A stretch of DNA of 64,000 nt from an uncultured Verrucomicrobiota bacterium (GCA_964568145.1 CAZMOZ010000016.1:9766-73765), one strand, 5' to 3'; shown: positions 25,373-40,439, counted from the first letter of the stretch. Numbers and translations: made by a program. Notes: generated from the sequence alone by a model not told the origin.

Positions 25373-25489
25373 GCCGTCGCGCGGCGTGTGTCAACGGATG
25401 GGCGACGCTAGCGGAAGCGCGCGCCGTTGGCAACGGGCGGCGTGGCGGGGGCGCATTGCGGCTGCGGACTTCAGCCTGCGGCGGCGTTC

Positions 25490-26833
25490 TCGCTTCGCGG
25501 GCGGAGTTTCCACAACGCGCTGGGCCGGCTCACCCGCGTGGATTTCCCGGACAGCACGTATGTCCAGCACGTCTTCACCAACGGCGCGGGCGTGAAGCTC
25601 CTGGACCGCACCGGCGCCCGCGACCGCCTGGGCAACTGGACCCGCTACGAGTACAACGGCCTGCGGCAGGTCACGCGCGTGCTGGACCCGCTCCTGCGCG
25701 AAACCCGCTACACGTACTGCGGCTGCGGCGGCCCGGAGAGCGTCACCCGCGCGTACGGCACGACCCTGGCCGAGACCACCAGTTACGAATACGACTTCGC
25801 CGGCCGCCTGCGCGGGGTGACCGCCCCCGACGGCACCAGCGTGACCAACACGTACGACCGGTTGGGCCGGCTGGCCATCGTGGGCCGGGCCTTCGACACC
25901 CACACCAATTACTACGACAACCTCGGCCGCCTCTGGGTGGTGGAGAACGCCGCTGGCGTGGTCTCGGAACTGGCCTACGACGACCACGACCGCGTCCGAC
26001 TCGCAATTGACGCCCAGGGCGTGACGGTGACCAACCGCTACGACGCCCTGGGCCGCCTCCTGAGCCGCACGCTGCCCGCGATCAACGCCGTCGAGTCCTT
26101 CGGCTACACCGCCGGCGTCAGCGGCCCCACGGCCCACACCAACCCGGTCGGCAAGGTGACGCTCCACGCCTATGACGCCGCGGGCCGCCAGACCAACGAA
26201 GTGCAGCCGGGCGTTTTCACCAACCGCTTCACCTACACCCCCGCCGACGACCTGGCCACGCTGGCCGACGGCCAAGGCAACGTCACCACCTGGAAGTACG
26301 ACGCCGAGGGGCGCGTCACCGAAAAGTGGTACACGGCCAGTCCACCGCCGACCTGCTATACCTCTACAACGCCAACGGCTGGCTCACCCAGCGCTTCACC
26401 CGCACCGGCACGGGCGCCAGCACCAACGGCTACTTCACCACGTACGCGTATGACAGTGCGGGCAATCTGACGAACATGACCTACCCCGCCGGCACGGCCT
26501 CGCTCACGAACGGGTTCGACGCCTTGGACCGGTTGACGAACCGGCTGGACGGGCTGGGGCAGACGAAGTACCTGTATGCCGTGCTTGGGAACGGCCAGCA
26601 CACGTTCACCCAACGGCCCTTGGGCGGGGAACGAGGTGACCGTGACCAACCGGCACGGTCGGCGGGCGGGGTTGCGGATCGCGCAGCCCGGCGGGCAGTT
26701 CACGGTCACCACCACGTGGGATGCCGCCGGCTGGTGGGCGACCGTGGGCGGCACGGCCGGCACCTTCACCTGCGGCCATCCATCACCGGTGGGTGACAGT
26801 GCCCTGTCGGCGACCGCGCAGTTCACACGGTAA
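25490..26833 (+). pseudogene. Internal RHS/YD-repeat fragment with at least two frameshifts; no N-terminal domain and no C-terminal toxin
   Basis: YD repeats (GNWTRYEYNGLRQVTRV, TSYEYDFAGRLRGVTAPDG, TNTYDRLGRL, TWKYDAEGRVTEKWY). They continue in another frame from about 26335 (YLYNANGWLTQR, TYAYDSAGNLTNMTY) and shift again near 26615 (NEVTVTNRHGRRAGLRI). Confidence 0.8.
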
Positions 26834-27206
26834 AATGTTGCGGCTTCCGGGTTGAAGGCGGAGCGGAGAGATCGTGCCGACGATTTGTTGGGAGGCGCGG
26901 TCGTGGGGCCGCAGGGCGAAGGTGGGTCTGGGGTTTGTGGTTCGTGGTGGCTGGGATGGCAGAACGCCGCTCCTTTCTTCCCAGCGCAAACTTCAGCCGC
27001 AGGCGTGGCCGTCCGTGTCCCCGAAAACCGGGCGTCGTGGCACTCGGCCCTCCGGAACGGGGATGCCGCCGCGTTCTGACGGACATTTACGGGCCGCTGA
27101 GCCAGCGGCTGGGCACCAGCGCCTCCCCGTTGCGCGGCGCGCGCCAGGGCGTATAGTTTTGCATGAAACCCAGGCGCGACATGAACGCGCGACGTATTGG
27201 AGGCTG

Positions 27207-28379
27207 ATGGCTCCTCCAAACACGAATCCGGCCGCGCCGGCCGCCGGTCCGCCGACGGCCCGCGAGGGATTGGCTGACGCGCTCGACCGCCACACCGCCG
27301 CGGGCCGGTTGTGCCGGGCCGAGAACGGCAAGGTCCGCTGCGTGGCCTGCGGGCATCGCTGTCTGATCGCGCCGGGCCGGCGCGGCGTGTGCAAGGTGCG
27401 GTTCAACCGCGACGGGGAACTTCGCGTGCCTTTCGGCTACGTGGCCGTCGTGGCGTGCGATCCGGTCGAGAAAAAGCCGTTCTTCCACGCCCTGCCCGGC
27501 AGCGACGCGCTCACGTTCGGCATGCTGGGCTGCGATTTCCACTGCGCGTACTGCCAGAACTGGATCACCAGCCAGGCGCTGCGGGACGAGGAGGCCACCG
27601 GCCGTTACCATCCAGCCACGCCCGCGCAGTTGGTCGCCGCCGCACGACGCCACGGCGCCCGGCTGATGGTCTCGAGCTACAACGAGCCGCTCATCACCGC
27701 AGAGTGGGCCGCGGCGGTGTTCGCCGAGGCGAAGCCCGCGGGCCTGCTGTGCGCGTTTGTGTCCAATGGCAACGCCACGCCCGAGGCGCTGGACTTCCTC
27801 CAGCCCTGGCTCGCCGCCTACAAGGTGGACCTCAAGGGCTTCAACGACCGCCGCTACCGCACCCTGGGCGGCACGCTCGAGGCCGTGACCGAAACGATCA
27901 AGATGGTCCACGCGCGCGGGCTCTGGCTCGAGGTGGTCACGCTGCTGGTGCCCGGCTTCAACGACCACGAGGCCGAGCTGCGCGAGCTGACCCAGTTCCT
28001 GGCCTCAGTGAGCCCGGACATTCCCTGGCACGTCACGGCCTTCCACCCGGATTACAAGATGCTGGATCCGCGCGCCACGACCGCGGCGGACCTGGTCCGG
28101 GCGGCCGAGATCGGTGCCGCCGCCGGCCTGCGTTACGTCTATGCCGGCAACCTGCCGGGCCGGGTGGGCGAGTGGGAGAACACCCGCTGCCCGCAATGCC
28201 GCCGCACGGTGATCCGCCGGCACGGCTTTGCCGTCCTGGAAAAGCAGATCGGCGCCGATGGCCGGTGTCCCGGTTGCGGCGCCACGGTGCCGGGCATCTG
28301 GAGTTACGGAGACTATTATCCACCCCCGCCGCAGCCGGCGGGGGCGATGGGCCGCTGGCCCCGCCCGGTGGCCCTGTGA
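27207..28379 (+). CDS. amrS: AmmeMemoRadiSam system radical SAM enzyme
   Basis: VRCVACGHRCLIAPGRRGVCKVRFN zinc-ribbon-like N-terminus. Radical SAM CxxxCxxC motif in GCDFHCAYCQNW. Start set to ATG 27207. Confidence 0.85.
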   Translation: MAPPNTNPAAPAAGPPTAREGLADALDRHTAAGRLCRAENGKVRCVACGHRCLIAPGRRGVCKVRFNRDGELRVPFGYVAVVACDPVEKKPFFHALPGSDALTFGMLGCDFHCAYCQNWITSQALRDEEATGRYHPATPAQLVAAARRHGARLMVSSYNEPLITAEWAAAVFAEAKPAGLLCAFVSNGNATPEALDFLQPWLAAYKVDLKGFNDRRYRTLGGTLEAVTETIKMVHARGLWLEVVTLLVPGFNDHEAELRELTQFLASVSPDIPWHVTAFHPDYKMLDPRATTAADLVRAAEIGAAAGLRYVYAGNLPGRVGEWENTRCPQCRRTVIRRHGFAVLEKQIGADGRCPGCGATVPGIWSYGDYYPPPPQPAGAMGRWPRPVAL

Positions 28380-28392
28380 TGGAGGATTTGCC

Positions 28393-29217
28393 ATGCTTAA
28401 AACCGTCCCCCAATTGATCCGGTCTGCAGCGCAGGCCGGCCGTTTCTATCCGGGCAGCCCCACGCGGTTGCAAGCGGATGTGAACGGGTATCTGGAACAG
28501 GTTTCCCCCGCCGAAGGCCCGGTGCCCAAGGCGGTCATCGCCCCGCACGCCGGCTACGTGTATTCCGGCCCGGTCGCCGCGTCGGCGTTCATCCGGCTCG
28601 CCCCGGCGCACGCGCGCCTGCGCCGGGTGGTGCTGCTCGGGCCGTCGCATTACGAGGACTTCGAGGGCCTGGCGGCCACGGCGGCGGACGCGTTTGCCAC
28701 GCCGCTGGGCCTCGTGCCGGTGGATTCCGAGGCGATCGAACGCGCGCTGGACCTGCCACAGGTCAAGGTGTTCGACCGCGCGCACACCCCGGAGCACTGC
28801 CTCGAGGTGGAACTGCCCTTCCTGCAAACCGTGCTGGATGAGTTCGTCATCGTGCCGTTGCTCGTCGGCCATGCCGACCCGGCTGAGGTGGGCGAAGTCC
28901 TCGACGCGCTCTGGGACGGCGAGGAAACGTGCGTGGTGGTGAGCTCGGACCTGAGCCATTACCTCGACGCCGAGACCGCGCGGCGGGTGGACCGCGCCAC
29001 CGCGCGGGCGATCGAGGCCTTGCAGGGCGATGCGCTGGACGGGCGTTGCGCCTGCGGCTGCCGGGCCATCGCTGGTTTGCTGTGCTTGGCGCGAACGCGC
29101 GGGATGAGGGTGGAGACACTGGACCTGCGCAATTCCGGCGACACCGCCGGGCCCACGGACCGCGTGGTGGGCTACGGCGCCTTCGCGTTCTTCGAGCCGG
29201 AAACTTCCACCCGCTGA
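28393..29217 (+). CDS. amrB: AmmeMemoRadiSam system protein B (Memo-like)
   Basis: AGRFYPGSPTRL...AVIAPHAGYVYSGPVAASAF and SSDLSHY are Memo hallmarks. Start at ATG 28393. Confidence 0.85.
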   Translation: MLKTVPQLIRSAAQAGRFYPGSPTRLQADVNGYLEQVSPAEGPVPKAVIAPHAGYVYSGPVAASAFIRLAPAHARLRRVVLLGPSHYEDFEGLAATAADAFATPLGLVPVDSEAIERALDLPQVKVFDRAHTPEHCLEVELPFLQTVLDEFVIVPLLVGHADPAEVGEVLDALWDGEETCVVVSSDLSHYLDAETARRVDRATARAIEALQGDALDGRCACGCRAIAGLLCLARTRGMRVETLDLRNSGDTAGPTDRVVGYGAFAFFEPETSTR

Positions 29218-29354
29218 ACCGGAACACGCTTCACTGCGGGCCGTGGTGACGTTGGCGACCTCGCCTGCGGCAGTCACGCGGGCGGCCCGCCCGCGCCCGC
29301 AGATGTGGACCTCCGCGCCCGAAGTTGCCGGGCGTCGGGAAACTCCGCCCGCCG

Positions 29355-29432
29355 GAAATCCAAATCCGAAGTTCCAAGTTCCAGATTCAAAGTCCCAAGC
29401 CCAAGTCCAGAGTCCACAGACCTCGAGCGGTT
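29355..29432. repeat. Word repeat (CCAAGT / AGTCCACAG type)
   Basis: GGAAATCCAAATCCGAAGTTCCAAGTTCCAGATTCAAAGTCCCAAGCCCAAGTCCAGAGTCCACAGACC. Shares GAGTCCACAG words with the reverse complement of 37301-37335. Confidence 0.6.
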
Positions 29433-29576
29433 TGATTAAAGCTGTGGCCGCGTGGGGAGCGCGGGCTTCAGCCCGCTTCACCGTGCGCGGGCAGACGGGC
29501 GTGGAAGCGGCGTGAACGCCGCGCTCCGAAAACGCTGTCGCAAGCGGCCCCAGTTTTATTGAAAACGCGCTCGATC

Positions 29577-29615
29577 CCCGAACCCCGGACCAAGAACCAA
29601 GAACCAGAAACCACC
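29577..29615. repeat. Word repeat (CCAAGAAC type)
   Basis: CCCGAACCCCGGACCAAGAACCAAGAACCAGAAACCACCC. Confidence 0.5.
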
Positions 29616-29720
29616 CGGCATGCCCCCGCGCTTGCCCGGCGGGCGCAACTCGGCCAGACTCCGCCGGCTTGCGACCGGCCCGGCGGTGGGTGCCCGGCCC
29701 GGTCCGGCCGCGCCACACGC

Positions 29721-30845
29721 ATGTCGCCGTCCCAATTGCTCCGCGAACTCATCGCCCTGCCCAGCGTCAACCCGGCCTTTCTGCCGGCGGGCGACCCGCG
29801 CGGCGGCGAGGCGCGCGTGGCGGAGCACCTGGCCCGGCTCGCGAAGACCGCCGGCTTGCGCGTGACCCGCCAACGCGCGCTTCCCGGCCGGGAGAATCTC
29901 CTGCTCACGCTCGCACCGACCGGCCGCGCGCGCCGGCGGGTGATCCTCGCGCCGCATCTGGACACGGTGGGCGCGGAGGCCGCGCAGTTCCGACCCGTCC
30001 AGCGCAATGGCCGGCTGCACGGCCGGGGCGCCTGCGACACGAAGGGTAGCCTGGCGGCCATGTTCAGCGCGCTGACCGCGGTGGCACATTCGGCCCGCCG
30101 GCCCGCCCACACCGAGATTGTCCTGGCCGGCCTGGTGGACGAGGAAGACGGTCAGCGGGGCGCGCGCGCGTTGGTGGCCTCGGGGCTGGCCGCCGACCTC
30201 GCCATCGTGGGCGAGCCCACCGCCCTGAAAGTGATCACCGCGCACAAAGGCAGCCTGTGGCTGGGCCTGGAGACCCGCGGCCGGGCCGCGCACGGCGCCC
30301 GGCCCGGGCTGGGCCGCAACGCCATTCTCGCCATGGCGCGCGTGGTCGCGTTGCTGGAGACCGAGTACGCCTCCGCGCTGCGTTGCCGGCCGCACCCATT
30401 GCTCGGGCCGGCCACGGTCAGCGTCGGCACCATCGCCGGCGGCGTCCAACCCAACATCGTGCCCGACCGGTGTGAAATTCGGGTGGACCGGCGCACCCTG
30501 CCGGGCGAGACCGCCGCGGGTGTCATCCGGGAAATGCAGGCCTTCCTGCGCCTGCACGGCCTCAAGGCGACCATCGCCAACCTCAAGGAGTTGCCCTGCG
30601 ATCCGCTGGAAACCGATTCCAACCTCCCGCTGGTGCGGGCCTTGATGGATTGCGCGGGCCAGCGTCAGCCCGCCGGCGTGGATTACTTTTGCGACGCCGC
30701 GGTGCTCAGCGCGGGCGGCATACCCAGCGTGGTCTTCGGGCCGGGCGACATCGCGCAGGCGCACACGGCTGACGAATGGGTTTCGGTGCGGCAGCTTGAG
30801 CGGGCCATGGTGATCTTGACCCGGTTTCTGCACGCGCTGCCCTGA
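29721..30845 (+). CDS. M20 family metallohydrolase (ArgE/DapE-like deacylase)
   Basis: LLRELIALPSVNP, ILAPHLDTVG and GRGACDTKGSLAAM. Start set to ATG 29721. Confidence 0.8.
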   Translation: MSPSQLLRELIALPSVNPAFLPAGDPRGGEARVAEHLARLAKTAGLRVTRQRALPGRENLLLTLAPTGRARRRVILAPHLDTVGAEAAQFRPVQRNGRLHGRGACDTKGSLAAMFSALTAVAHSARRPAHTEIVLAGLVDEEDGQRGARALVASGLAADLAIVGEPTALKVITAHKGSLWLGLETRGRAAHGARPGLGRNAILAMARVVALLETEYASALRCRPHPLLGPATVSVGTIAGGVQPNIVPDRCEIRVDRRTLPGETAAGVIREMQAFLRLHGLKATIANLKELPCDPLETDSNLPLVRALMDCAGQRQPAGVDYFCDAAVLSAGGIPSVVFGPGDIAQAHTADEWVSVRQLERAMVILTRFLHALP

Positions 30846-30857
30846 CCGCCCGGCTTC

Positions 30858-32069
30858 ATGCGCGTCGCCCTGCTCACCCACGAGCCGTTTTATCCGCCCA
30901 GCGGCGGCGGGTCGGCCGAGGCGTTGTACCTGGTGCGCGAACTGGCGCGGCGCGGCCATACGGTGACGGTGTTTGCGCCCGGCAGCGGCTGGCCGGAAGA
31001 CCTGGCCGGCCAGGCGGGCGCTCGGCTGCAAACCTTCACGACCTGGCCGATGGGCCGGCGCGCGCGCGCGCGGACGTTGAAGTACCTGCTATACCCCGCG
31101 GCGCTCGCCCGGTTAGTGCGACGCGCGACGGCCCGCGAGCGGTTTGACGTGCTGGTGGCCCAGCACGCGATCGCCTGTGTGGCCGCCGGCCGGCTCAAGC
31201 GGCCCCTGCGCGTGCCGGTGGTGATGAACTTCCTCGATCATCTCACCGGCTTCATGGAGACTTGGCCCGCCTGGCTCATGCCCAAGCCGGTGCTGGCGGG
31301 GCTCAAGCGGTACGAACTCGCGCTGCCGCGGCGCTTCGCGGCCGACGCGGTGCTCACCGTCTCGGAACCGCTGGCCGAGCGCTTCGCCGCCGCCGGCTAC
31401 CCGCGCGACCGGCTGCGCCCGATCTTCTACGGCTACGACGCCGCGCTGTTCCGTTTCGACCCGGCGCGGCTGGCGGCGCGGCGGCAATCCCCGCCGGTGG
31501 TGGTGATGCACGGCTCGTTCGACCACCACCACCTGGGACCCATCGCGCTGGACACGATCGCCCGCGTGTGCGCGGAACGGCCGGAGGCGGTGTTTGAATT
31601 CATCGGGCCGGACACACCGGCGTGGCGGCGGTTTGCGCGGCAGGCGGCGAAGCGCGGCCTGGCCGGCGCGTTGCGCCACACGGGCTTCGTGCCGTACGAA
31701 GAAGTGGCGCGCCGGCTGGACGCGGCTTCAGTCGGGCTGGTGCCCTACGAGGAATCGGCGGGCACGCACTGCGCGTTTGTCGCGAAAGTGGTTGAGTATC
31801 TCGCGCTGGGTCTGCCGGTGGCCAGCACGGCCCTCGCTGGCATCCAACGCTATTTCGCAGACGAGCCGCTGGCGCGTTTCGCCGCGTTCGACGGCGCCCG
31901 GCTGGGCGAAGCGGTGCTGGGCTGGCTGGCCGAACCCGCCGCCACGCGCGAGGCGCTGGCCGCGCCGGCCGCCCGCCGCGTGCGCGAGCAACTGGACTGG
32001 CCGGTCATCTGCCGCCGCGCGGTGGACGCCATCGAACTCGCCCAGCAACGCGCGGCGGAACGGAGCTGA
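30858..32069 (+). CDS. Glycosyltransferase family 4 (GT-B fold)
   Basis: MRVALLTHEPFYPPSGGGSAEALYLVRELARRGHTVTVF N-terminus and a C-terminal E-x7-E region (FVAKVVEYLALGLPV). Confidence 0.8.
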   Translation: MRVALLTHEPFYPPSGGGSAEALYLVRELARRGHTVTVFAPGSGWPEDLAGQAGARLQTFTTWPMGRRARARTLKYLLYPAALARLVRRATARERFDVLVAQHAIACVAAGRLKRPLRVPVVMNFLDHLTGFMETWPAWLMPKPVLAGLKRYELALPRRFAADAVLTVSEPLAERFAAAGYPRDRLRPIFYGYDAALFRFDPARLAARRQSPPVVVMHGSFDHHHLGPIALDTIARVCAERPEAVFEFIGPDTPAWRRFARQAAKRGLAGALRHTGFVPYEEVARRLDAASVGLVPYEESAGTHCAFVAKVVEYLALGLPVASTALAGIQRYFADEPLARFAAFDGARLGEAVLGWLAEPAATREALAAPAARRVREQLDWPVICRRAVDAIELAQQRAAERS

Positions 32070-32078
32070 CGACGCATC

Positions 32079-33410
32079 ATGGCCGAGACCACCACGGGCC
32101 GACTCACGTTCTTCCGGCAGACAGGCTGGATGGTGCTGGCGACCGGGTTGATGGGGCTGTTCATGACCGCCACGCAGATGGTCGCGGCGCGGTGGATGGA
32201 GCCCGGCGAATACGCGGTGTGGTTCGCGCTGTTGCGGGTGTACCTGTTGCTGGGCATTCCGAGCATCGGCCTGCAAACGGTCTTTGCGCACCAGGCGGCG
32301 GCCTCGCTGGACCCGGCCTCGCAGGAGCGCCTCCACGCCACGGTGCGCGCGGTGCTGCGCGTGACGTTCCTCCTGTGGCTCGCCGTGGCGGTGGCGACGT
32401 TTCTCGCCCACGGCTGGCTGTTGCGCACGCTCAAGATCGCCAACCCGGCGGCGCTGTGGATCACGCTGGCCATCGGCCTGGTGTCGCTCTGGGCGCCGGT
32501 AATCCGCGGTCTGGTGCAGGGCCATCAACGGTTCGCGGTGCTGGGCTGGGCGTTGATCCTGGACGGCGTGGGGCGGTTCACCGCGGTGCTGCTCATCGTG
32601 CTGGCGGGCGGGCAGGCCGCGGGCGGCATGGCCGGCGCGCTGCTGGGCCAGGTGCTGGCGGTGGTGCTGTGTCTGCGCGTGGTCTGGAGCGACCTCAGCG
32701 GGCCGGGCGCGGGTTTCGACTGGGGGCCGTGGCTGCGGCAGGTCGGCCCCATCACGGCCGCCACGGGCACGGTGCTGTTTTTGTCCACGGCGGACGTGGT
32801 GTACGTGCAAAGCCTGTTTCCGCTCGAGCAATCGCAACGGTACGTGCCGGCGGCGATGATCGGGCTGGCGTTGACGACCTTTGGCGTGCCCATCGCGGCG
32901 GTGATGTTTCCCAAGGTGGCGCGGAGCACGGCGCTGGCGCGGGGCTCGAAGGCCATGCCGCTGGCGCTGGCGGCGACGCTGGGCGGCGGCGCGCTGGCGG
33001 CGCTGGCCTGCACCGCCTTTCCGGAAGTGCCGCTGCGCCTCATCTTTTTCGGCAAGCCGCTGTACTGGCAGGCCGCGCCGCTGGTGCCGTGGTTTGCCTG
33101 GGTGCTGCTGCCGTTGATCGTGGCCAATGTGCTGATCAACAACCTGCTCGCCGCCGGCCGGTTCCGCGTGGTGCCGTGGGTGCTGGCCGCGGGCCTGCTG
33201 TACCTGGGGTTGCTCTTTGGCGGACGCCACTGGCTGCCCACGCTCGAACCGTTCACCGCCTTTCGCGTGCTGCTCGGTACCTTGGGCGCCTGCAATCTCC
33301 TGCTCCTCACCTTCGCGACGATCTTCACGTTGCGCGAGCCGGCCCTGCCGCTGGACGGGAAGAGCGCAGTTGACGCCAGCGCCCGGACCGCCGCACCGTG
33401 CGTCCCGTGA
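32079..33410 (+). CDS. Polysaccharide/oligosaccharide flippase (Wzx/MOP superfamily)
   Basis: 443 aa, about 12-14 hydrophobic helices, adjacent to the GT4 gene. Confidence 0.7.
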   Translation: MAETTTGRLTFFRQTGWMVLATGLMGLFMTATQMVAARWMEPGEYAVWFALLRVYLLLGIPSIGLQTVFAHQAAASLDPASQERLHATVRAVLRVTFLLWLAVAVATFLAHGWLLRTLKIANPAALWITLAIGLVSLWAPVIRGLVQGHQRFAVLGWALILDGVGRFTAVLLIVLAGGQAAGGMAGALLGQVLAVVLCLRVVWSDLSGPGAGFDWGPWLRQVGPITAATGTVLFLSTADVVYVQSLFPLEQSQRYVPAAMIGLALTTFGVPIAAVMFPKVARSTALARGSKAMPLALAATLGGGALAALACTAFPEVPLRLIFFGKPLYWQAAPLVPWFAWVLLPLIVANVLINNLLAAGRFRVVPWVLAAGLLYLGLLFGGRHWLPTLEPFTAFRVLLGTLGACNLLLLTFATIFTLREPALPLDGKSAVDASARTAAPCVP

Positions 33411-34021
33411 CCAGCCGTCCCCCACTCGATCCCGAGGAACGTCGACTGCTCCTCGCCCTGGCCCGGGAAGCTGTGTGCCGCGGTGTGACGGGCGCGCCGT
33501 TGCCGGAGATCGAGGCGTGCAAGGTGCCGCCGCGGCTGGCGGAGCCGGTCGGCTGCTTCGTCACGCTCACGCGCGAAGGCGTCTTGCGCGGCTGCATCGG
33601 CAACCTCGAGCCCCGCTGGCCGCTGTGGCAGGCGGTGCTGGAAAACGCCCGCGCCGCCGCCACCCGCGACCGCCGCTTCCCGCCGGTCGCACCGGACGAA
33701 GTGGAGACGCTCCGCATCGAGATCAGCGTGCTCACGCCGCCGCAGCCGCTGGTCTGCGATTCGCCGGACGCGCTGCTGGCTCAACTGGCGCCGGGCCGCG
33801 ACGGGGTGCTGCTCGAGCTGGGCGCGCGGCGGGCGACGTTCCTGCCGCAAGTCTGGGACAAGCTCACGGACAAGGTCACCTTTCTGGACCAACTGGCGCT
33901 GAAGGCCGGCGGCACGGCGGGCGACTGGTGGCGGCCGGACGCGCGTGTCTCCATCTACGCCGTCGAGCATTTCGCGGAACCCGACGAACCCGGCGCGGCG
34001 CCCGACCCGCCGGGCGCTTGA
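33398..34021 (+). CDS. amrA: AmmeMemoRadiSam system protein A (AMMECR1 domain)
   Basis: VGCFVTLTREGVLRGCIGNLEP is the LRGCIG motif; RDRRFPPV...IEISVLTPP. Overlaps the flippase stop. An alternative GTG at 33407 would give a GTGA overlap. Confidence 0.85.
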   Translation: MRPVTSRPPLDPEERRLLLALAREAVCRGVTGAPLPEIEACKVPPRLAEPVGCFVTLTREGVLRGCIGNLEPRWPLWQAVLENARAAATRDRRFPPVAPDEVETLRIEISVLTPPQPLVCDSPDALLAQLAPGRDGVLLELGARRATFLPQVWDKLTDKVTFLDQLALKAGGTAGDWWRPDARVSIYAVEHFAEPDEPGAAPDPPGA

Positions 34022-34052: not shown

Positions 34053-34274
34053 ATGGACATGGCCACCGTCTTCCGCACCTTCAACGCCCCCGAGGCGCAC
34101 GTCATCCGCGGCCGGCTCGAGGCCGCCGGCATCGAGGCCAGCGTTCGCAATGAGTATTCCGCCAGTGCTCTCGGCGCCGGTGGTATCGCTGGCGTGGAGT
34201 ACTACGTGGATGTCCCGGAGGACTCCGCCGAGGCGGCGCGGGAGTTGCTCCGCTCGCCGGCCCAGCCCGAATGA
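34053..34274 (+). CDS. DUF2007 (putative signal-transducing) small protein
   Basis: VFRTFNAPEAHVIRGRLEAAGIEASVRNE...VDVPEDSAEAARELL. Confidence 0.65.
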   Translation: MDMATVFRTFNAPEAHVIRGRLEAAGIEASVRNEYSASALGAGGIAGVEYYVDVPEDSAEAARELLRSPAQPE

Positions 34275-34463
34275 ACCGGACGACCGCCAGCGAAAAGCCG
34301 TCCGGCGGGGCAAAACGGGCCATGAGCTTCAGCCGCGGAGCAGGTTGGCGGGGTGGCTGGCTTTTCCAGCCGGAAGCATGGAAGCCGCTTCCAGCCGTTA
34401 CACAGTCTCCCCGCCTTGCGCTATTTGCGCCTTTCTGCGGCCTTCTTGATCGCGAAATTTAGG

Positions 34464-35846
<1,383 letters not shown>

Positions 35847-37141: not shown

Positions 37142-38464
37142 TCAACCAAACATCCGCTTGAGCCGCCAGGCGTCGTAGGCCGCACGCTGGGCGGGGGTCA
37201 TCTTCGCGAAGTCCGGCGCGCCATCGGCCCGCACCGGCCAGGCGGGGGCGGGCTCGGCGGATCCCGGATGCCTGATCCCGGATGCCGGATGCCGGATGCC
37301 AAGGGGACTGTGGACTCGGGACTGTGGACTCGGAACTTCGCCTTCGCGTCCGGCCAGCGGGTTGTTCCGCACTTCGACGCTTGTCCGCGACCCACCGCCA
37401 TAGCTCATGGCCTGGTCGGTCAGTTCGAGGTCTTTTTCCAGCGGGCGATGCGGCTTGAGGCCCTTGCCTTGCAGAACCCCGTGGTAGGCCCGCACCGCCT
37501 CTTCGGGCGTGACGCGGCCGTCGGTGATGAGCCGCAGCATCTCGATGAACGCGAGCTGGTGTTCAGCGTGGTTGATCTTGCGGCCGAACAGCGCCACGCG
37601 CGCGCCGTACTTCTGCGCGTCGTGGATGAGCTGGAAGGCGTCGTAGGTCGTGCCCGCGCCGCCGCCGAGGACGCCGACCACCATGTTCGGGTCGTACTGG
37701 CAGAGCTCCTCGAGCGCGCGCGGCCCGTGATAGACGATCTTCAGGAACAACGGCCGCCCGGCCTCCGGCACGCCGGCCAGCGTCCGCAGGATGTTGTCAT
37801 TGATGAACTCGCCGAGCTTCTCCGCCGGGATGCCGCTGGCCACGTTCGGGTCGAAGACCTCGAGGAAGTGGCGGAACTGCTTCCGCTCGGCCTCTTCGCG
37901 AAATTCCTTGTAGGCAAGGAGTGTCTGGCGGTCCTGTTCGAGGTCGTTGACCCAGGTGACGCTGTACAGGCCGAGGTTGGCGCCGGGGAAGTCGTCCGAA
38001 CTACGGTCGCACTCGACCCGCCCGCACTGGATCTGGTCAATGCTCGCGCTGCGGAAAGGCTGCGCCGGCTCCCGCGTGTAGCTGCCGTGGCGGGCGGCCC
38101 AGACGTCGGTGGTGTCGTTGGCGCGGGCGGCGGGCGTGACCGGCGACTCGCGGAACAGGCCTTCCTGGATGGTCAGCACGTCGTTCACGTAAGCCGACAT
38201 CAACATGATGTCCACCAGGCCCTGCTGGGTGACTTCGCGGATGATGTCGAGGAACTCGGGCAGGTTGCGGTAGCCGAATTCCTCGCGCGTCCAGACCTCG
38301 GGCGAGAACTGGGCGGGCCGCGCGCCCCGGGCGGACAGATACGACCGCGGCCCTGGCGCGCGCACGCCGAAGGCCATGTCCGCGTCCTTGGCGTCGGCGA
38401 GGATGAACGCGCGGGACCGCGGGTTGGCGCGAATCTCGGCAAGCTTGGCGTCGAGGGATTTCAT
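37142..38464 (-). CDS. Conserved hypothetical protein, possibly aldolase-type TIM barrel, with a repeat-encoded insertion near the C-terminus
   Basis: 440-aa ORF. FILADAKDADM, IMLMSAYVND, FLKIVYHG and VGVLGGGAGTTYDAFQLIHDAQKYGARVALFGRKIN resemble DeoC/FbaB/DUF2090-type class I aldolase folds; this is a weak match by eye. Residues SPQSRVHSPLGIRHPASGIRHPGS are encoded by the word repeat at 37261-37340. Confidence 0.6.
   Translation of the reverse strand: MKSLDAKLAEIRANPRSRAFILADAKDADMAFGVRAPGPRSYLSARGARPAQFSPEVWTREEFGYRNLPEFLDIIREVTQQGLVDIMLMSAYVNDVLTIQEGLFRESPVTPAARANDTTDVWAARHGSYTREPAQPFRSASIDQIQCGRVECDRSSDDFPGANLGLYSVTWVNDLEQDRQTLLAYKEFREEAERKQFRHFLEVFDPNVASGIPAEKLGEFINDNILRTLAGVPEAGRPLFLKIVYHGPRALEELCQYDPNMVVGVLGGGAGTTYDAFQLIHDAQKYGARVALFGRKINHAEHQLAFIEMLRLITDGRVTPEEAVRAYHGVLQGKGLKPHRPLEKDLELTDQAMSYGGGSRTSVEVRNNPLAGREGEVPSPQSRVHSPLGIRHPASGIRHPGSAEPAPAWPVRADGAPDFAKMTPAQRAAYDAWRLKRMFG
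37261..37340. repeat. Word repeat lying inside a coding region (CGGATGCC x4, GGACTGTGGACTCGG x2)
   Basis: ATCCCGGATGCCTGATCCCGGATGCCGGATGCCGGATGCCAAGGGGACTGTGGACTCGGGACTGTGGACTCGGAACTTCG. Confidence 0.7.
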
Positions 38465-38611
38465 GCGCTAACCACAAAGGCACGCAAAGCCCGAGAGCAT
38501 CCGATGGCGGCACGTTTGAGGCCGGGTTTGGACTTCGAGACGCGGACGTGGATGAAGACGGCGGAACGGCGATGTTTTGACAGCCGGGGCGCCGTCCCGA
38601 CACCGGCACCG

Positions 38612-38827
38612 ATGCCGACAGTGATGAGCATCGGGCCGTACCGTTTCCATTTCTAAAGCCGGGAGGGCCGGGAGCCGCCGCACATCCACGTGGCCCGCGA
38701 TGATTTTGAAGCCAAGTTCTGGCTGGACCCGATCACGCTCGCGGCGAGTTTTGGCTTCCGCCCGGCGGAACTGCGCGACCTCCAGCGGCCGGTGGAAGAG
38801 CATCGCCAAACGTTGATCGCCGCGTAG
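38612..38827 (+). pseudogene. DUF4160 family gene interrupted by an in-frame TAA at codon 15
   Basis: MPTVMSIGPYRFHF-TAA-SREGREPPHIHVARDDFEAKFWLDPITLAASFGFRPAELRDLQRPVEEHRQTLIAA. The family normally reads ...F(Y)SNE..EPPH(I/V)HV, so TAA sits where Tyr (TAC/TAT) is expected. Confidence 0.7.
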
Positions 38828-38831
38828 ATTC

Positions 38832-39110
38832 GTGTCCATGGACAATAACGCAGCATCCCCGGTGATCGCGGTGCGCTGCTGGATCGAAGGCCGGCGCGTC
38901 TGGCTCGAGCTGGGCGACCAGCGATTGGTCAGCTTTCCCGCCGCAAAGTATCCGCGGCTGGCCAATGCCAGCGAGGAAGCGCTGGCCCAGGTGCGGCTCC
39001 GTGTCGGCGGCCGGGCCCTGCGGTGGGAGAACCTCGATGAGGACATCTGGGTGGAAGACGCGGTGCTGGGCCGTTTTCCCCGGTCCAAGACCGAGACGAT
39101 CTCCGCGTAG
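38832..39110 (+). CDS. DUF2442 domain protein
   Basis: VIAVRCWIEGRRVWLELGDQRLVSFPAAKYPRLANASEEALAQVRL..GGRALRWENLDEDIWVE fits DUF2442. Starts 5 nt after the DUF4160 stop. Confidence 0.7.
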   Translation: MSMDNNAASPVIAVRCWIEGRRVWLELGDQRLVSFPAAKYPRLANASEEALAQVRLRVGGRALRWENLDEDIWVEDAVLGRFPRSKTETISA

Positions 39111-39133
39111 CCCGGTTCCAGCCGCATGATGCC

Positions 39134-40204
39134 TCACTTCATCTGCGCCAGGATCTGGTCGGTGACCGCCTGCACCACCGCCTCGGCCTCGGCATCCGGG
39201 CCCGCCGTCGTCTCCGCCCGAGCCGGCACCTGACAGGTCACGCCGGGGCGCCATTCGTCGTTGTCGCAAAGCTCGCATTCCTTGAGCCCGTAACGCGGGT
39301 CCACGTAGCCGAGGCTTTGCTTGATCTTGAGCAGGTCCTGGAGCTGCTGGGGTGAGAAGGTGTTCGGCTTCACCCCGAGTTGCGTGGTGACGAGCAGCGT
39401 GCGGCAGTACGCCTCGATGATCTCCATCCGCCAGTAGGCCTCCTCGAGGTTCTTGTGGCTCCAGGTCACGACGCCGTGGTTGGCCATGAGGATGGTGTTG
39501 TGCTGGTCCACCAAGTCGGCGACCAGCCTGCCCATCTCCGGGGTTCCCGGCGTGCGGTACGGCGCGACCGCGACGGCGCAGAAGACCTCGTACTCGGGCA
39601 ACATGCACGTGGGCGGCGCGACACCCGCCACGGCGAAGCCCGTGGCGTACGGCGGATGGCAATGGCACGTGGCCACGGCCTGGGGCTGCCGTTGCATGAT
39701 CTGCAGGTGCATCAGGATTTCGCTGGTGCGTTTTCTCGCGCCCAGAAGCTGGTTGCCCTCGAAATCCACCAGGCACATGTCCTCGGGCTTGAGCGAGCCC
39801 TTGCTGACCAGTGTGGGCGTGCAGATGGCGATGTCCTCGCCGACGCGGATGGCCATGTTGCCGCCGTTGCCGTCCACGTACTCGCGCAGCCACAAGCGCC
39901 GGCCCATCTCGCAAATCTGCTGCTTGAGATCAAGCGCGTAGGCGGAGTTGAAGAACGCCTCGAGCTCGGCCTTCGGCGACCTGGAGTTCAGCGGCCGGGC
40001 GGGCGGACGCAATTCGTCCTGGGCGGCCGGTTTGCTCGGCGCGCCGTTCGCGGCAACAGCCGGCCTGCCGCCGCCCCGCTCCAGCGTGTCCCGCACGAGG
40101 TCGCGGGCGGACGGCGTCAAAATCGCCTCGGCCGGCAGGGTGTTCAGGTCCACGCCCCGGCGGAGCATGTCTTCGATGTCGCGGGCGCTGATGACTTTTT
40201 TCAT
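39134..40204 (-). CDS. Class II aldolase (fuculose/rhamnulose-1-phosphate aldolase-like) with N-terminal extension; BMC-associated
   Basis: Core GNGGNMAIRV...CTPTLVSKG...SEILMHLQIM...ATCHCHPPYATGF...MANHGVVTW with metal-binding His residues. About 110 extra N-terminal residues and a C-terminal amphipathic helix AVVQAVTDQILAQMK. Start set to Met at 40204. Confidence 0.85.
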   Translation of the reverse strand: MKKVISARDIEDMLRRGVDLNTLPAEAILTPSARDLVRDTLERGGGRPAVAANGAPSKPAAQDELRPPARPLNSRSPKAELEAFFNSAYALDLKQQICEMGRRLWLREYVDGNGGNMAIRVGEDIAICTPTLVSKGSLKPEDMCLVDFEGNQLLGARKRTSEILMHLQIMQRQPQAVATCHCHPPYATGFAVAGVAPPTCMLPEYEVFCAVAVAPYRTPGTPEMGRLVADLVDQHNTILMANHGVVTWSHKNLEEAYWRMEIIEAYCRTLLVTTQLGVKPNTFSPQQLQDLLKIKQSLGYVDPRYGLKECELCDNDEWRPGVTCQVPARAETTAGPDAEAEAVVQAVTDQILAQMK

Positions 40205-40246
40205 GGGAAGGGGTGAGAAAAGGGCTCCAAGTGGCGAAGGTTGCAC

Positions 40247-40305
40247 CCAAAAACCGAAGTTGAGCCGGATGGGAATCCGGCGCTGCGGGCAACTTCGGTT
40301 TTCGG
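40247..40305. repeat. REP-like hairpin, subfamily b (reverse orientation)
   Basis: CCAAAAACCGAAGTTG-agCCGGATgggaATCCGGcgctgcggg-CAACTTCGGTTTTCGG, 43 nt upstream of the aldolase start codon. Confidence 0.8.
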
Positions 40306-40439
40306 GCGAGAGCCGGCTTGCGGCATTCCGCTGAATCCCGCCGGGTTGCTCCACGAAAGCTTGGAAATCCTCCGTGGCGCGTCACCGCGCGTATCGTGAT
40401 CGCGCGGTGCGAAAATGGAGTCCGGGAACCTCACCCGGC

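Follow-up and report, generated by a model that had tools for sequence, protein, structure and literature searches.

Why should the genes of an AmmeMemoRadiSam system be interrupted by a set of genes that look like a glycan-assembly cassette? The question is raised by a locus at positions 27207-34021 (plus strand) of a 64,000-nucleotide stretch of DNA from an uncultured Verrucomicrobiota bacterium (GCA_964568145.1 CAZMOZ010000016.1:9766-73765), which we refer to in full as the window. The system comprises a radical SAM enzyme (rSAM), the Memo-like protein B and the AMMECR1-type protein A, whose genes we call amr genes. It has been conserved all the way from archaea to humans, with disease links for the eukaryotic relatives AMMECR1 and MEMO1. 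To our knowledge the trio has no known substrate, and searches of the open literature returned no functional study of the system; Memo-AMMECR1 gene contexts have reportedly been linked to the modification of aliphatic isoprenoids. In the window, the gene for protein A lies 4.2 kb downstream of the rSAM-B pair, behind genes for an M20 metallohydrolase, a family 4 glycosyltransferase (GT4) and a Wzx-like flippase. The initial annotation saw in this embedding a possible functional clue that would tie the system to an envelope glycoconjugate. Our analysis lends the clue weak support: the adjacency extends throughout one genus and has a parallel in a second family, but the cassette proved to be autonomous. 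We consider it likely that two independent modules lie side by side, that protein A rides on the cassette operon, and that the gene order, ancestral in a single genus, is slowly decaying there.

The layout of the locus was borne out in all its parts. Six intact and co-directional genes, with boundaries essentially as first stated, follow each other in the order radical SAM, B, M20, GT4, transporter and A, and a spacer separates the second gene from the third (Table 1). Gaps of 13 nt (rSAM to B), 12 nt (M20 to GT4) and 9 nt (GT4 to transporter) join the genes on either side of this spacer. A GTG start codon at position 33407 gives protein A a 4-nt GTGA overlap with the stop codon of the transporter gene (33408-33410), and the gene call of the Joint Genome Institute (JGI) on an identical metagenome contig uses the same start. 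The alternative GTG at 33398 would yield a protein of 207 amino acids and an overlap of 13 nt. The G+C content of the window is about 70%.

Table 1. Coordinates of the genes and putative regulatory sites at the locus, counted from the first nucleotide of the window
Feature	Position	Strand	Length	Basis
Promoter-like site P1, TTGCGC-N16-TATAGT	27130..27157	+		Pattern scan of the window; ~50 nt upstream of rSAM
AmmeMemoRadiSam radical SAM enzyme (AmrS)	27207..28379	+	390 aa	TIGR04337, 276.8 bits (cut-off 220)
AmmeMemoRadiSam protein B (Memo-like)	28393..29217	+	274 aa	TIGR04336, 257.4 bits (cut-off 26)
Spacer with ccaagtcc-type short word repeats and GC-rich hairpins; holds P2	29218..29720	.	503 nt	Read from sequence
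Promoter-like site P2, CTTGCCC-N17-CAGACT	29631..29660	+		Alignment of upstream DNA; 61 nt upstream of M20
M20 metallohydrolase, ArgE/DapE type	29721..30845	+	374 aa	Pfam Peptidase_M20 and M20_dimer
GT4-family (GT-B) glycosyltransferase	30858..32069	+	403 aa	Pfam, both GT-B halves above gathering scores
MOP-superfamily Wzx/PST-like transporter	32079..33410	+	443 aa	Fold match; weak PF01943
AmmeMemoRadiSam protein A (AMMECR1)	33407..34021	+	204 aa	TIGR04335, 190.7 bits (cut-off 99)
DUF2007 small protein	34053..34274	+	73 aa	Pfam PF09413, 2.6e-13
GlcD-like FAD-linked oxidase	34353..35846	+		Pfam FAD_binding_4 and FAD-oxidase_C

The window encodes a true AmmeMemoRadiSam system of the ordinary kind, with a gene order specific to its lineage. 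All three proteins exceed the curated cut-offs of their models, each is encoded by one full copy in the genome, and they co-occur among relatives: of the 61 genomes searched (the window genome and 60 relatives), 41 contain A and 38 contain B, with matching tallies by family and genus. The radical SAM enzyme contains the CxxxCxxC motif as CDFHCAYC (residues 109-116), together with Cys clusters at its N and C termini; protein B matches the Pfam family Memo (5e-49), and the LRGCIG motif of protein A is intact. The rSAM-B adjacency also agrees with the known system. Protein A differs from it in being neither adjacent nor fused to its partners, an adjacency that is typical rather than strictly defining: three unrelated genes lie in between, and A is probably carried on a transcript other than that of rSAM-B.

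The three intervening genes can be followed far beyond the neighborhood of amr genes. An ortholog of the flippase is present, mostly as a single copy, in 55 of the 61 genomes, including many without A or B. Sampling the order more widely (131 genomes, more than 85 GTDB families) gave the same picture, with the flippase ortholog in 120 genomes, A in 44 and B in 40; about 75 genomes have the cassette and neither A nor B. On contigs free of amr genes, M20-GT4-flippase or M20-x-flippase arrangements occur in at least 14 other families and genera, some of them in genomes that lack A and B altogether. Across these relatives (loci L065-L084 and L158), the GT4 gene is replaced in some families by a different gene of about 1 kb, or is absent. 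GT4 orthologs with 51-83% identity nevertheless precede the flippase in many families, and the M20 proteins of the order share 55-73% identity. Outside the order, flippase homologs are distant only (at most 33% identity). The M20-GT4-flippase set is an autonomous core module of this verrucomicrobial order.

A promoter-like site of its own would fit such an autonomous cassette. The spacer upstream of M20, whose homologs in other members of the genus measure 118-350 nt, has no match in Rfam and folds no more stably than shuffled controls (z = -0.98), and a simple scan of it revealed neither a consensus terminator nor an E. coli-type promoter. An alignment of the DNA upstream of M20 pointed to site P2, with the fixed core CTTGCC-N-CA(C/G)ACT; read as a promoter, it would consist of TTGCCC and CAGACT separated by 17 nt. 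The strict motif has a single occurrence in the 64-kb window. Nine of 20 loci carry it no more than 100 nt upstream of M20, compared with a background of 0.0016 per 200 nt, for a pattern that, like that of P1, was defined after inspection of the data. These loci, in which the motif is 42-97 nt away from the M20 start, include all five members of the genus that have M20 at the cassette as well as genera g2, g3, g5 and g7, which carry the motif although no amr gene lies upstream; the conserved promoter-like motif of the cassette belongs to family f1. Upstream of the radical SAM gene, motifs of the form TTGC..-TA..(G/A)T resembling P1 are found at a distance of 50-80 nt in nine of nine genus members examined.

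Because P2 is conserved even where no amr gene lies upstream, the cassette and protein A are probably transcribed apart from rSAM-B. We infer two transcription units, with P1 serving rSAM-B and P2 serving M20-GT4-flippase-A. According to the initial annotation, the functional clue would fall if the intervening genes were not conserved next to amr genes in any relatives and were transcribed independently, for example from a promoter in this gap. Half of this is what we observe: a promoter-like site does seem to lie in the gap, while the intervening genes are conserved beside amr genes in relatives, namely in the genus and in a second family, f18.

Next, we consider where protein A and the rSAM-B pair are located in other genomes. 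In none of the 43 other A-bearing genomes of the order does A lie behind the flippase, and elsewhere in the phylum none of 136 cases places A within 30 kb of a flippase homolog. Likewise, no M20, GT4 or flippase homolog was found within five genes of A at 49 loci of other orders of the phylum. A Pfam tally of the proteins flanking A in the phylum, covering the first 125 of 182 such proteins, returned 187 families, none of them more than three times (Glycos_transf_1 reached three); the M20 and Polysacc_synt families are absent from the 25 most frequent, and glycosyltransferase, M20 and flippase families show no enrichment. The neighborhood survey of phylum flanks and order genomes thereby gave no sign, beyond the genus and f18, of the enrichment of M20, GT4 and flippase genes near amr genes that the first reading of the locus had led one to look for.

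Instead, the gene that precedes stand-alone A elsewhere in the order varies between genera and encodes a GH95 glycosidase, an NDP-sugar epimerase, a porin or a histidine kinase. One other genus of the family shows a 4-nt overlap between the gene for A and a GH95 fucosidase gene, so a tight overlap is not diagnostic of shared function. Of 22 sampled genomes of the order, at least 17 show no linkage between stand-alone A and rSAM-B; the two are found on separate contigs or at distances of 50 kb to 1 Mb (on closed or large contigs such as those of G009, G372 and G379). Because of this usual lack of linkage, dispersal of the trio is the rule in the order rather than a peculiarity of the window. 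That the three genes are usually adjacent or fused is true of other orders of the phylum, in which most A proteins are fused to B or encoded next to it, but not of this one.

Two further features of amr genes in the order were observed. Several genera, including one species of the genus to which the window genome belongs, contain a second AmmeMemoRadiSam set (L034-L044, for example on G007:C4 and G035:C40), which consists of a B-A fusion of about 546 amino acids and, about 3 kb away, a divergent rSAM with 33% identity to that of the window. In G035, this second set adjoins orthologs of the window genes at 37142-40354, and in genera g2, g4 and g11 the B-A fusion seems to be the sole source of the A domain. 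Moreover, genes of NAD biosynthesis lie beside amr genes in three lineages of the order (L032, L025-L027 and L015), as NadA-rSAM-B-A in G038, NadA-epimerase-A in genus g7 and GH95-A-NadC in G017 (genus g9). These neighbors could be the remnant of an older nadA-amr-nadC synteny or a functional hint; in the phylum sample, the 25 Pfam families found most often beside A show no such link to NAD biosynthesis.

Within the genus, the arrangement was compared in ten species (G000-G009, G000 carrying the full order). A simple gene caller based on GC3 had missed some genes in relatives, and synteny is therefore given by tblastn coordinates. The full order rSAM-B-M20-GT4-flippase-A-(DUF2007)-GlcD is present in G000, G003 and G005. 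G009 has kept M20-GT4-flippase-A, with rSAM-B 50 kb away, and in G001, G002, G004, G007 and G008 (GT4-)flippase-A is preserved and rSAM-B sits on a different contig; the assembly of G004, 89% complete, yielded no B. Conversely, G006 retains rSAM-B-M20-GT4-flippase, and its A is located elsewhere in the genome and not lost. The junction between flippase and A consists of the GTGA overlap in four species and of a gap of 27-95 nt in five. In a tree of rSAM and B the genus is monophyletic (99), and as three of its four subclades include a species with the full order (G000, G003, G005), we regard this order as ancestral in the genus. From there, rSAM-B has left the locus at least three times (the G001/G002/G008 clade, G007 and G009) and A once (G006). 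M20 has moved away from the cassette in G001, G002 and G004, yet was retained in these genomes.

In G007 (L011 3492-5819), frameshifts or assembly errors break M20 and GT4 into two frames each, next to an intact flippase and A. In the G001/G002/G008 clade (L045, L046, L049), the relocated rSAM-B pair is followed by a heparinase II/III-like protein of 629 amino acids, a further neighbor with a glycan connection and probably an incidental one.

What the cassette may do was approached through its three proteins. The M20 protein combines a catalytic and a dimerization domain, and its best match in the PDB is ArgE of E. coli (7rsf, 6e-32), aligned over the full length. The motifs HLDTV, CDTKG, DEEDG, GEPT and AHTADE align with E. 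coli ArgE at the metal ligands and the catalytic Glu, such that the His, Asp, Glu-Glu, Glu and His positions all find their counterparts in 7rsf. The label ArgE/DapE-like proposed in the initial annotation is therefore upheld by domains and motifs, but not by any equivalog model: TIGR01892 scores 208 bits against a cut-off of 297.7, and all other ArgE/DapE equivalog models also remain below theirs. Moreover, this protein is kept beside a glycosyltransferase and a flippase rather than beside arg or dap genes. ArgE itself was rejected as an assignment on account of the equivalog score and of ArgJ, which the genome encodes and which makes ArgE unnecessary for arginine synthesis. We predict an ArgE-like deacylase, to which the models assign no particular specificity.

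The glycosyltransferase is clear from its domains, which score 70 bits (PF13439), 66 bits (PF13579), 42 bits (PF13692) and 33.5 bits (PF00534), all above the gathering scores, in the families Glyco_transf_4, Glyco_trans_4_4 and Glycos_transf_1. A sequence search of the PDB gave no match for it at 1e-5.

The designation of the transporter as Wzx-like depends on the level of comparison. By sequence it is weak: the match to PF01943 (Polysacc_synt) reaches 22.2 bits, below the gathering score of 28.2, and a sequence search of the PDB returned nothing useful. Of 19 orthologs, 5 match this family better, at E ≤0.01 (best 4.6e-8), and in the JGI annotation relatives of the transporter carry the name "O-antigen/teichoic acid export membrane protein". 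By fold the designation appears justified. An AlphaFold2 model (pLDDT 90.6, pTM 0.88) has the 12-helix MOP fold, and the top Foldseek matches in the PDB are structures of the lipid III flippase WzxE of E. coli (9g9n/9g9p, E = 1e-6), followed by MATE and MurJ proteins, with TM values of 0.56-0.71 among the top matches. Taken alone, the modeled fold may also be compatible with a MATE-type export of a soluble product. A housekeeping MurJ was rejected, as a true MurJ (363 bits) is encoded elsewhere in the genome, which also encodes two PST proteins that score better than the transporter of the window.

Compared with Wzx/Wzy-type clusters, the cassette shares the GT4 gene directly upstream of the transporter, and in one related metagenome-assembled genome its relatives lie near a gene for an NDP-sugar epimerase and a GT2 gene. 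It differs from them in having no Wzy polymerase, no chain-length regulator and no initiating phosphoglycosyl transferase, its constant partner being the M20 deacylase. O-antigen and capsule loci are variable, whereas this cassette is single-copy and near-universal in the order.

Based on these observations, we propose the following explanation for the locus. The first module is an ordinary three-component AmmeMemoRadiSam system, which combines an rSAM-B pair, preceded by a promoter-like site of its own, with a stand-alone A. The second is the M20-GT4-Wzx-like core cassette of the order, with a conserved promoter-like site in the 503-nt gap. The likeliest role of the cassette is to build and deacylate a glycoconjugate and to export or flip it. 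The cassette would have come to lie between rSAM-B and A in the ancestor of the genus. Protein A would since have been the last or near-last gene of the cassette transcription unit, translationally coupled to the flippase via the GTGA overlap. Hitch-hiking of a small stand-alone gene on an operon is the likeliest reason for this placement, rather than a shared pathway, and we infer no functional coupling between the modules. As the cassette is a self-contained core module and has a promoter-like site of its own, its position between the amr genes offers no more than a weak hint at the function of the AmmeMemoRadiSam system.

The strongest alternative is a functional link, in which the AmmeMemoRadiSam enzymes would tailor the lipid-linked or glycan product of the cassette in the genus and in f18, for example by radical chemistry on the polyprenyl carrier, the sugar or an acyl group, and selection would keep the genes adjacent. 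Several observations speak for it and thereby weigh against two unrelated modules. Every one of the ten species of the genus has A, rSAM-B or both beside GT4-flippase, flippase and A are still together in nine of them, and the GTGA junction would couple these two genes translationally. The reported prediction that ties Memo-AMMECR1 contexts to isoprenoid modification speaks for a link as well, and such a function would suit glycan intermediates carried on polyprenol. The weightiest observation comes from f18. In two genera of this family (G049 and G431), rSAM-B is located directly upstream of GT4-flippase, with no M20 in between and with A elsewhere. These loci are broken by contig ends in both assemblies, and the join is secure in G431 because the ends overlap by 73 nt. 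Family f18 is not sister to the genus on either the rSAM+B tree or the cassette tree, and on the latter it groups with genus g9, which is without the linkage. The gene trees would accordingly imply either that rSAM-B joined the cassette twice or that an old arrangement decayed in at least seven lineages. If the f18 join is independent, chance becomes an uncomfortable explanation, and it is chiefly this parallel that leaves room for a functional link.

Against such a link stands the distribution of the two modules: the cassette is near-universal and amr genes are present in about one-third of the order genomes, so the cassette does not need them. Adjacency and enrichment are absent from the other A-bearing genomes of the order and from the phylum sample, and the repeated departure of rSAM-B took place within a single genus. 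The cassette has also retained a promoter-like motif of its own, the gene for A overlaps unrelated ones in other genomes, and glycan genes are so common in Verrucomicrobiota that chance neighbors are expected. We therefore regard a functional link as rather unlikely, and its more specific form, in which the enzymes would act on a polyprenyl-linked or glycolipid envelope intermediate made by the cassette in the genus and f18, as slightly less probable still.

A second alternative, which we hold to be improbable, is that A alone was recruited to the cassette or to the DUF2007 and GlcD-like genes and works independently of rSAM-B in the genus. This would account for the fact that A has stayed with flippase, DUF2007 and GlcD while rSAM-B is gone from the locus in six of ten genus members, and it would agree with the usual lack of linkage between A and rSAM-B in the order. 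However, A scores well above the cut-off of TIGR04335, a model specific for the system, the three proteins still co-occur genome by genome, and in G006 A left the cassette without being lost. Finally, the gene order could be an artefact of assembly or binning, given that the source is a metagenome-assembled draft genome of 97 contigs; this is virtually ruled out by the identical locus on a 171-kb contig of an independent JGI metagenome, by the full order in two further species of the genus (G003 and G005) and by partial versions in seven more.

As for the genes next to A, a DUF2007 gene was also called after it in G003 and G007, and a GlcD-like gene follows A in seven of the nine other genus species examined. 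The GlcD-like oxidase of the window, for which JGI places the start at 34416, scores 417 bits with TIGR00387, below the cut-off of 568, and is probably not part of the AmmeMemoRadiSam system. In one genome of another order, a GlcD-type gene is located three genes from B-A (L087). On the other side of the locus, between scpA and the radical SAM gene, the window contains RHS/YD-repeat fragments (25427-26796) with faint Pfam matches in the JGI annotation.

A robust genomic association would be valuable for the AmmeMemoRadiSam system, given its disease-linked eukaryotic relatives. If the enzymes did act on a polyprenyl-linked or glycolipid intermediate, this would provide the first concrete substrate class for a system that reaches from archaea to humans. 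The association described here is confined to one genus, with a partial parallel in one other family, and knowing these bounds guards against over-reading a weak clue; for a gene as small as that of protein A, a tight overlap is no evidence of shared function. The cassette itself is noteworthy as a near-universal M20-GT4-Wzx-like module of this verrucomicrobial order.

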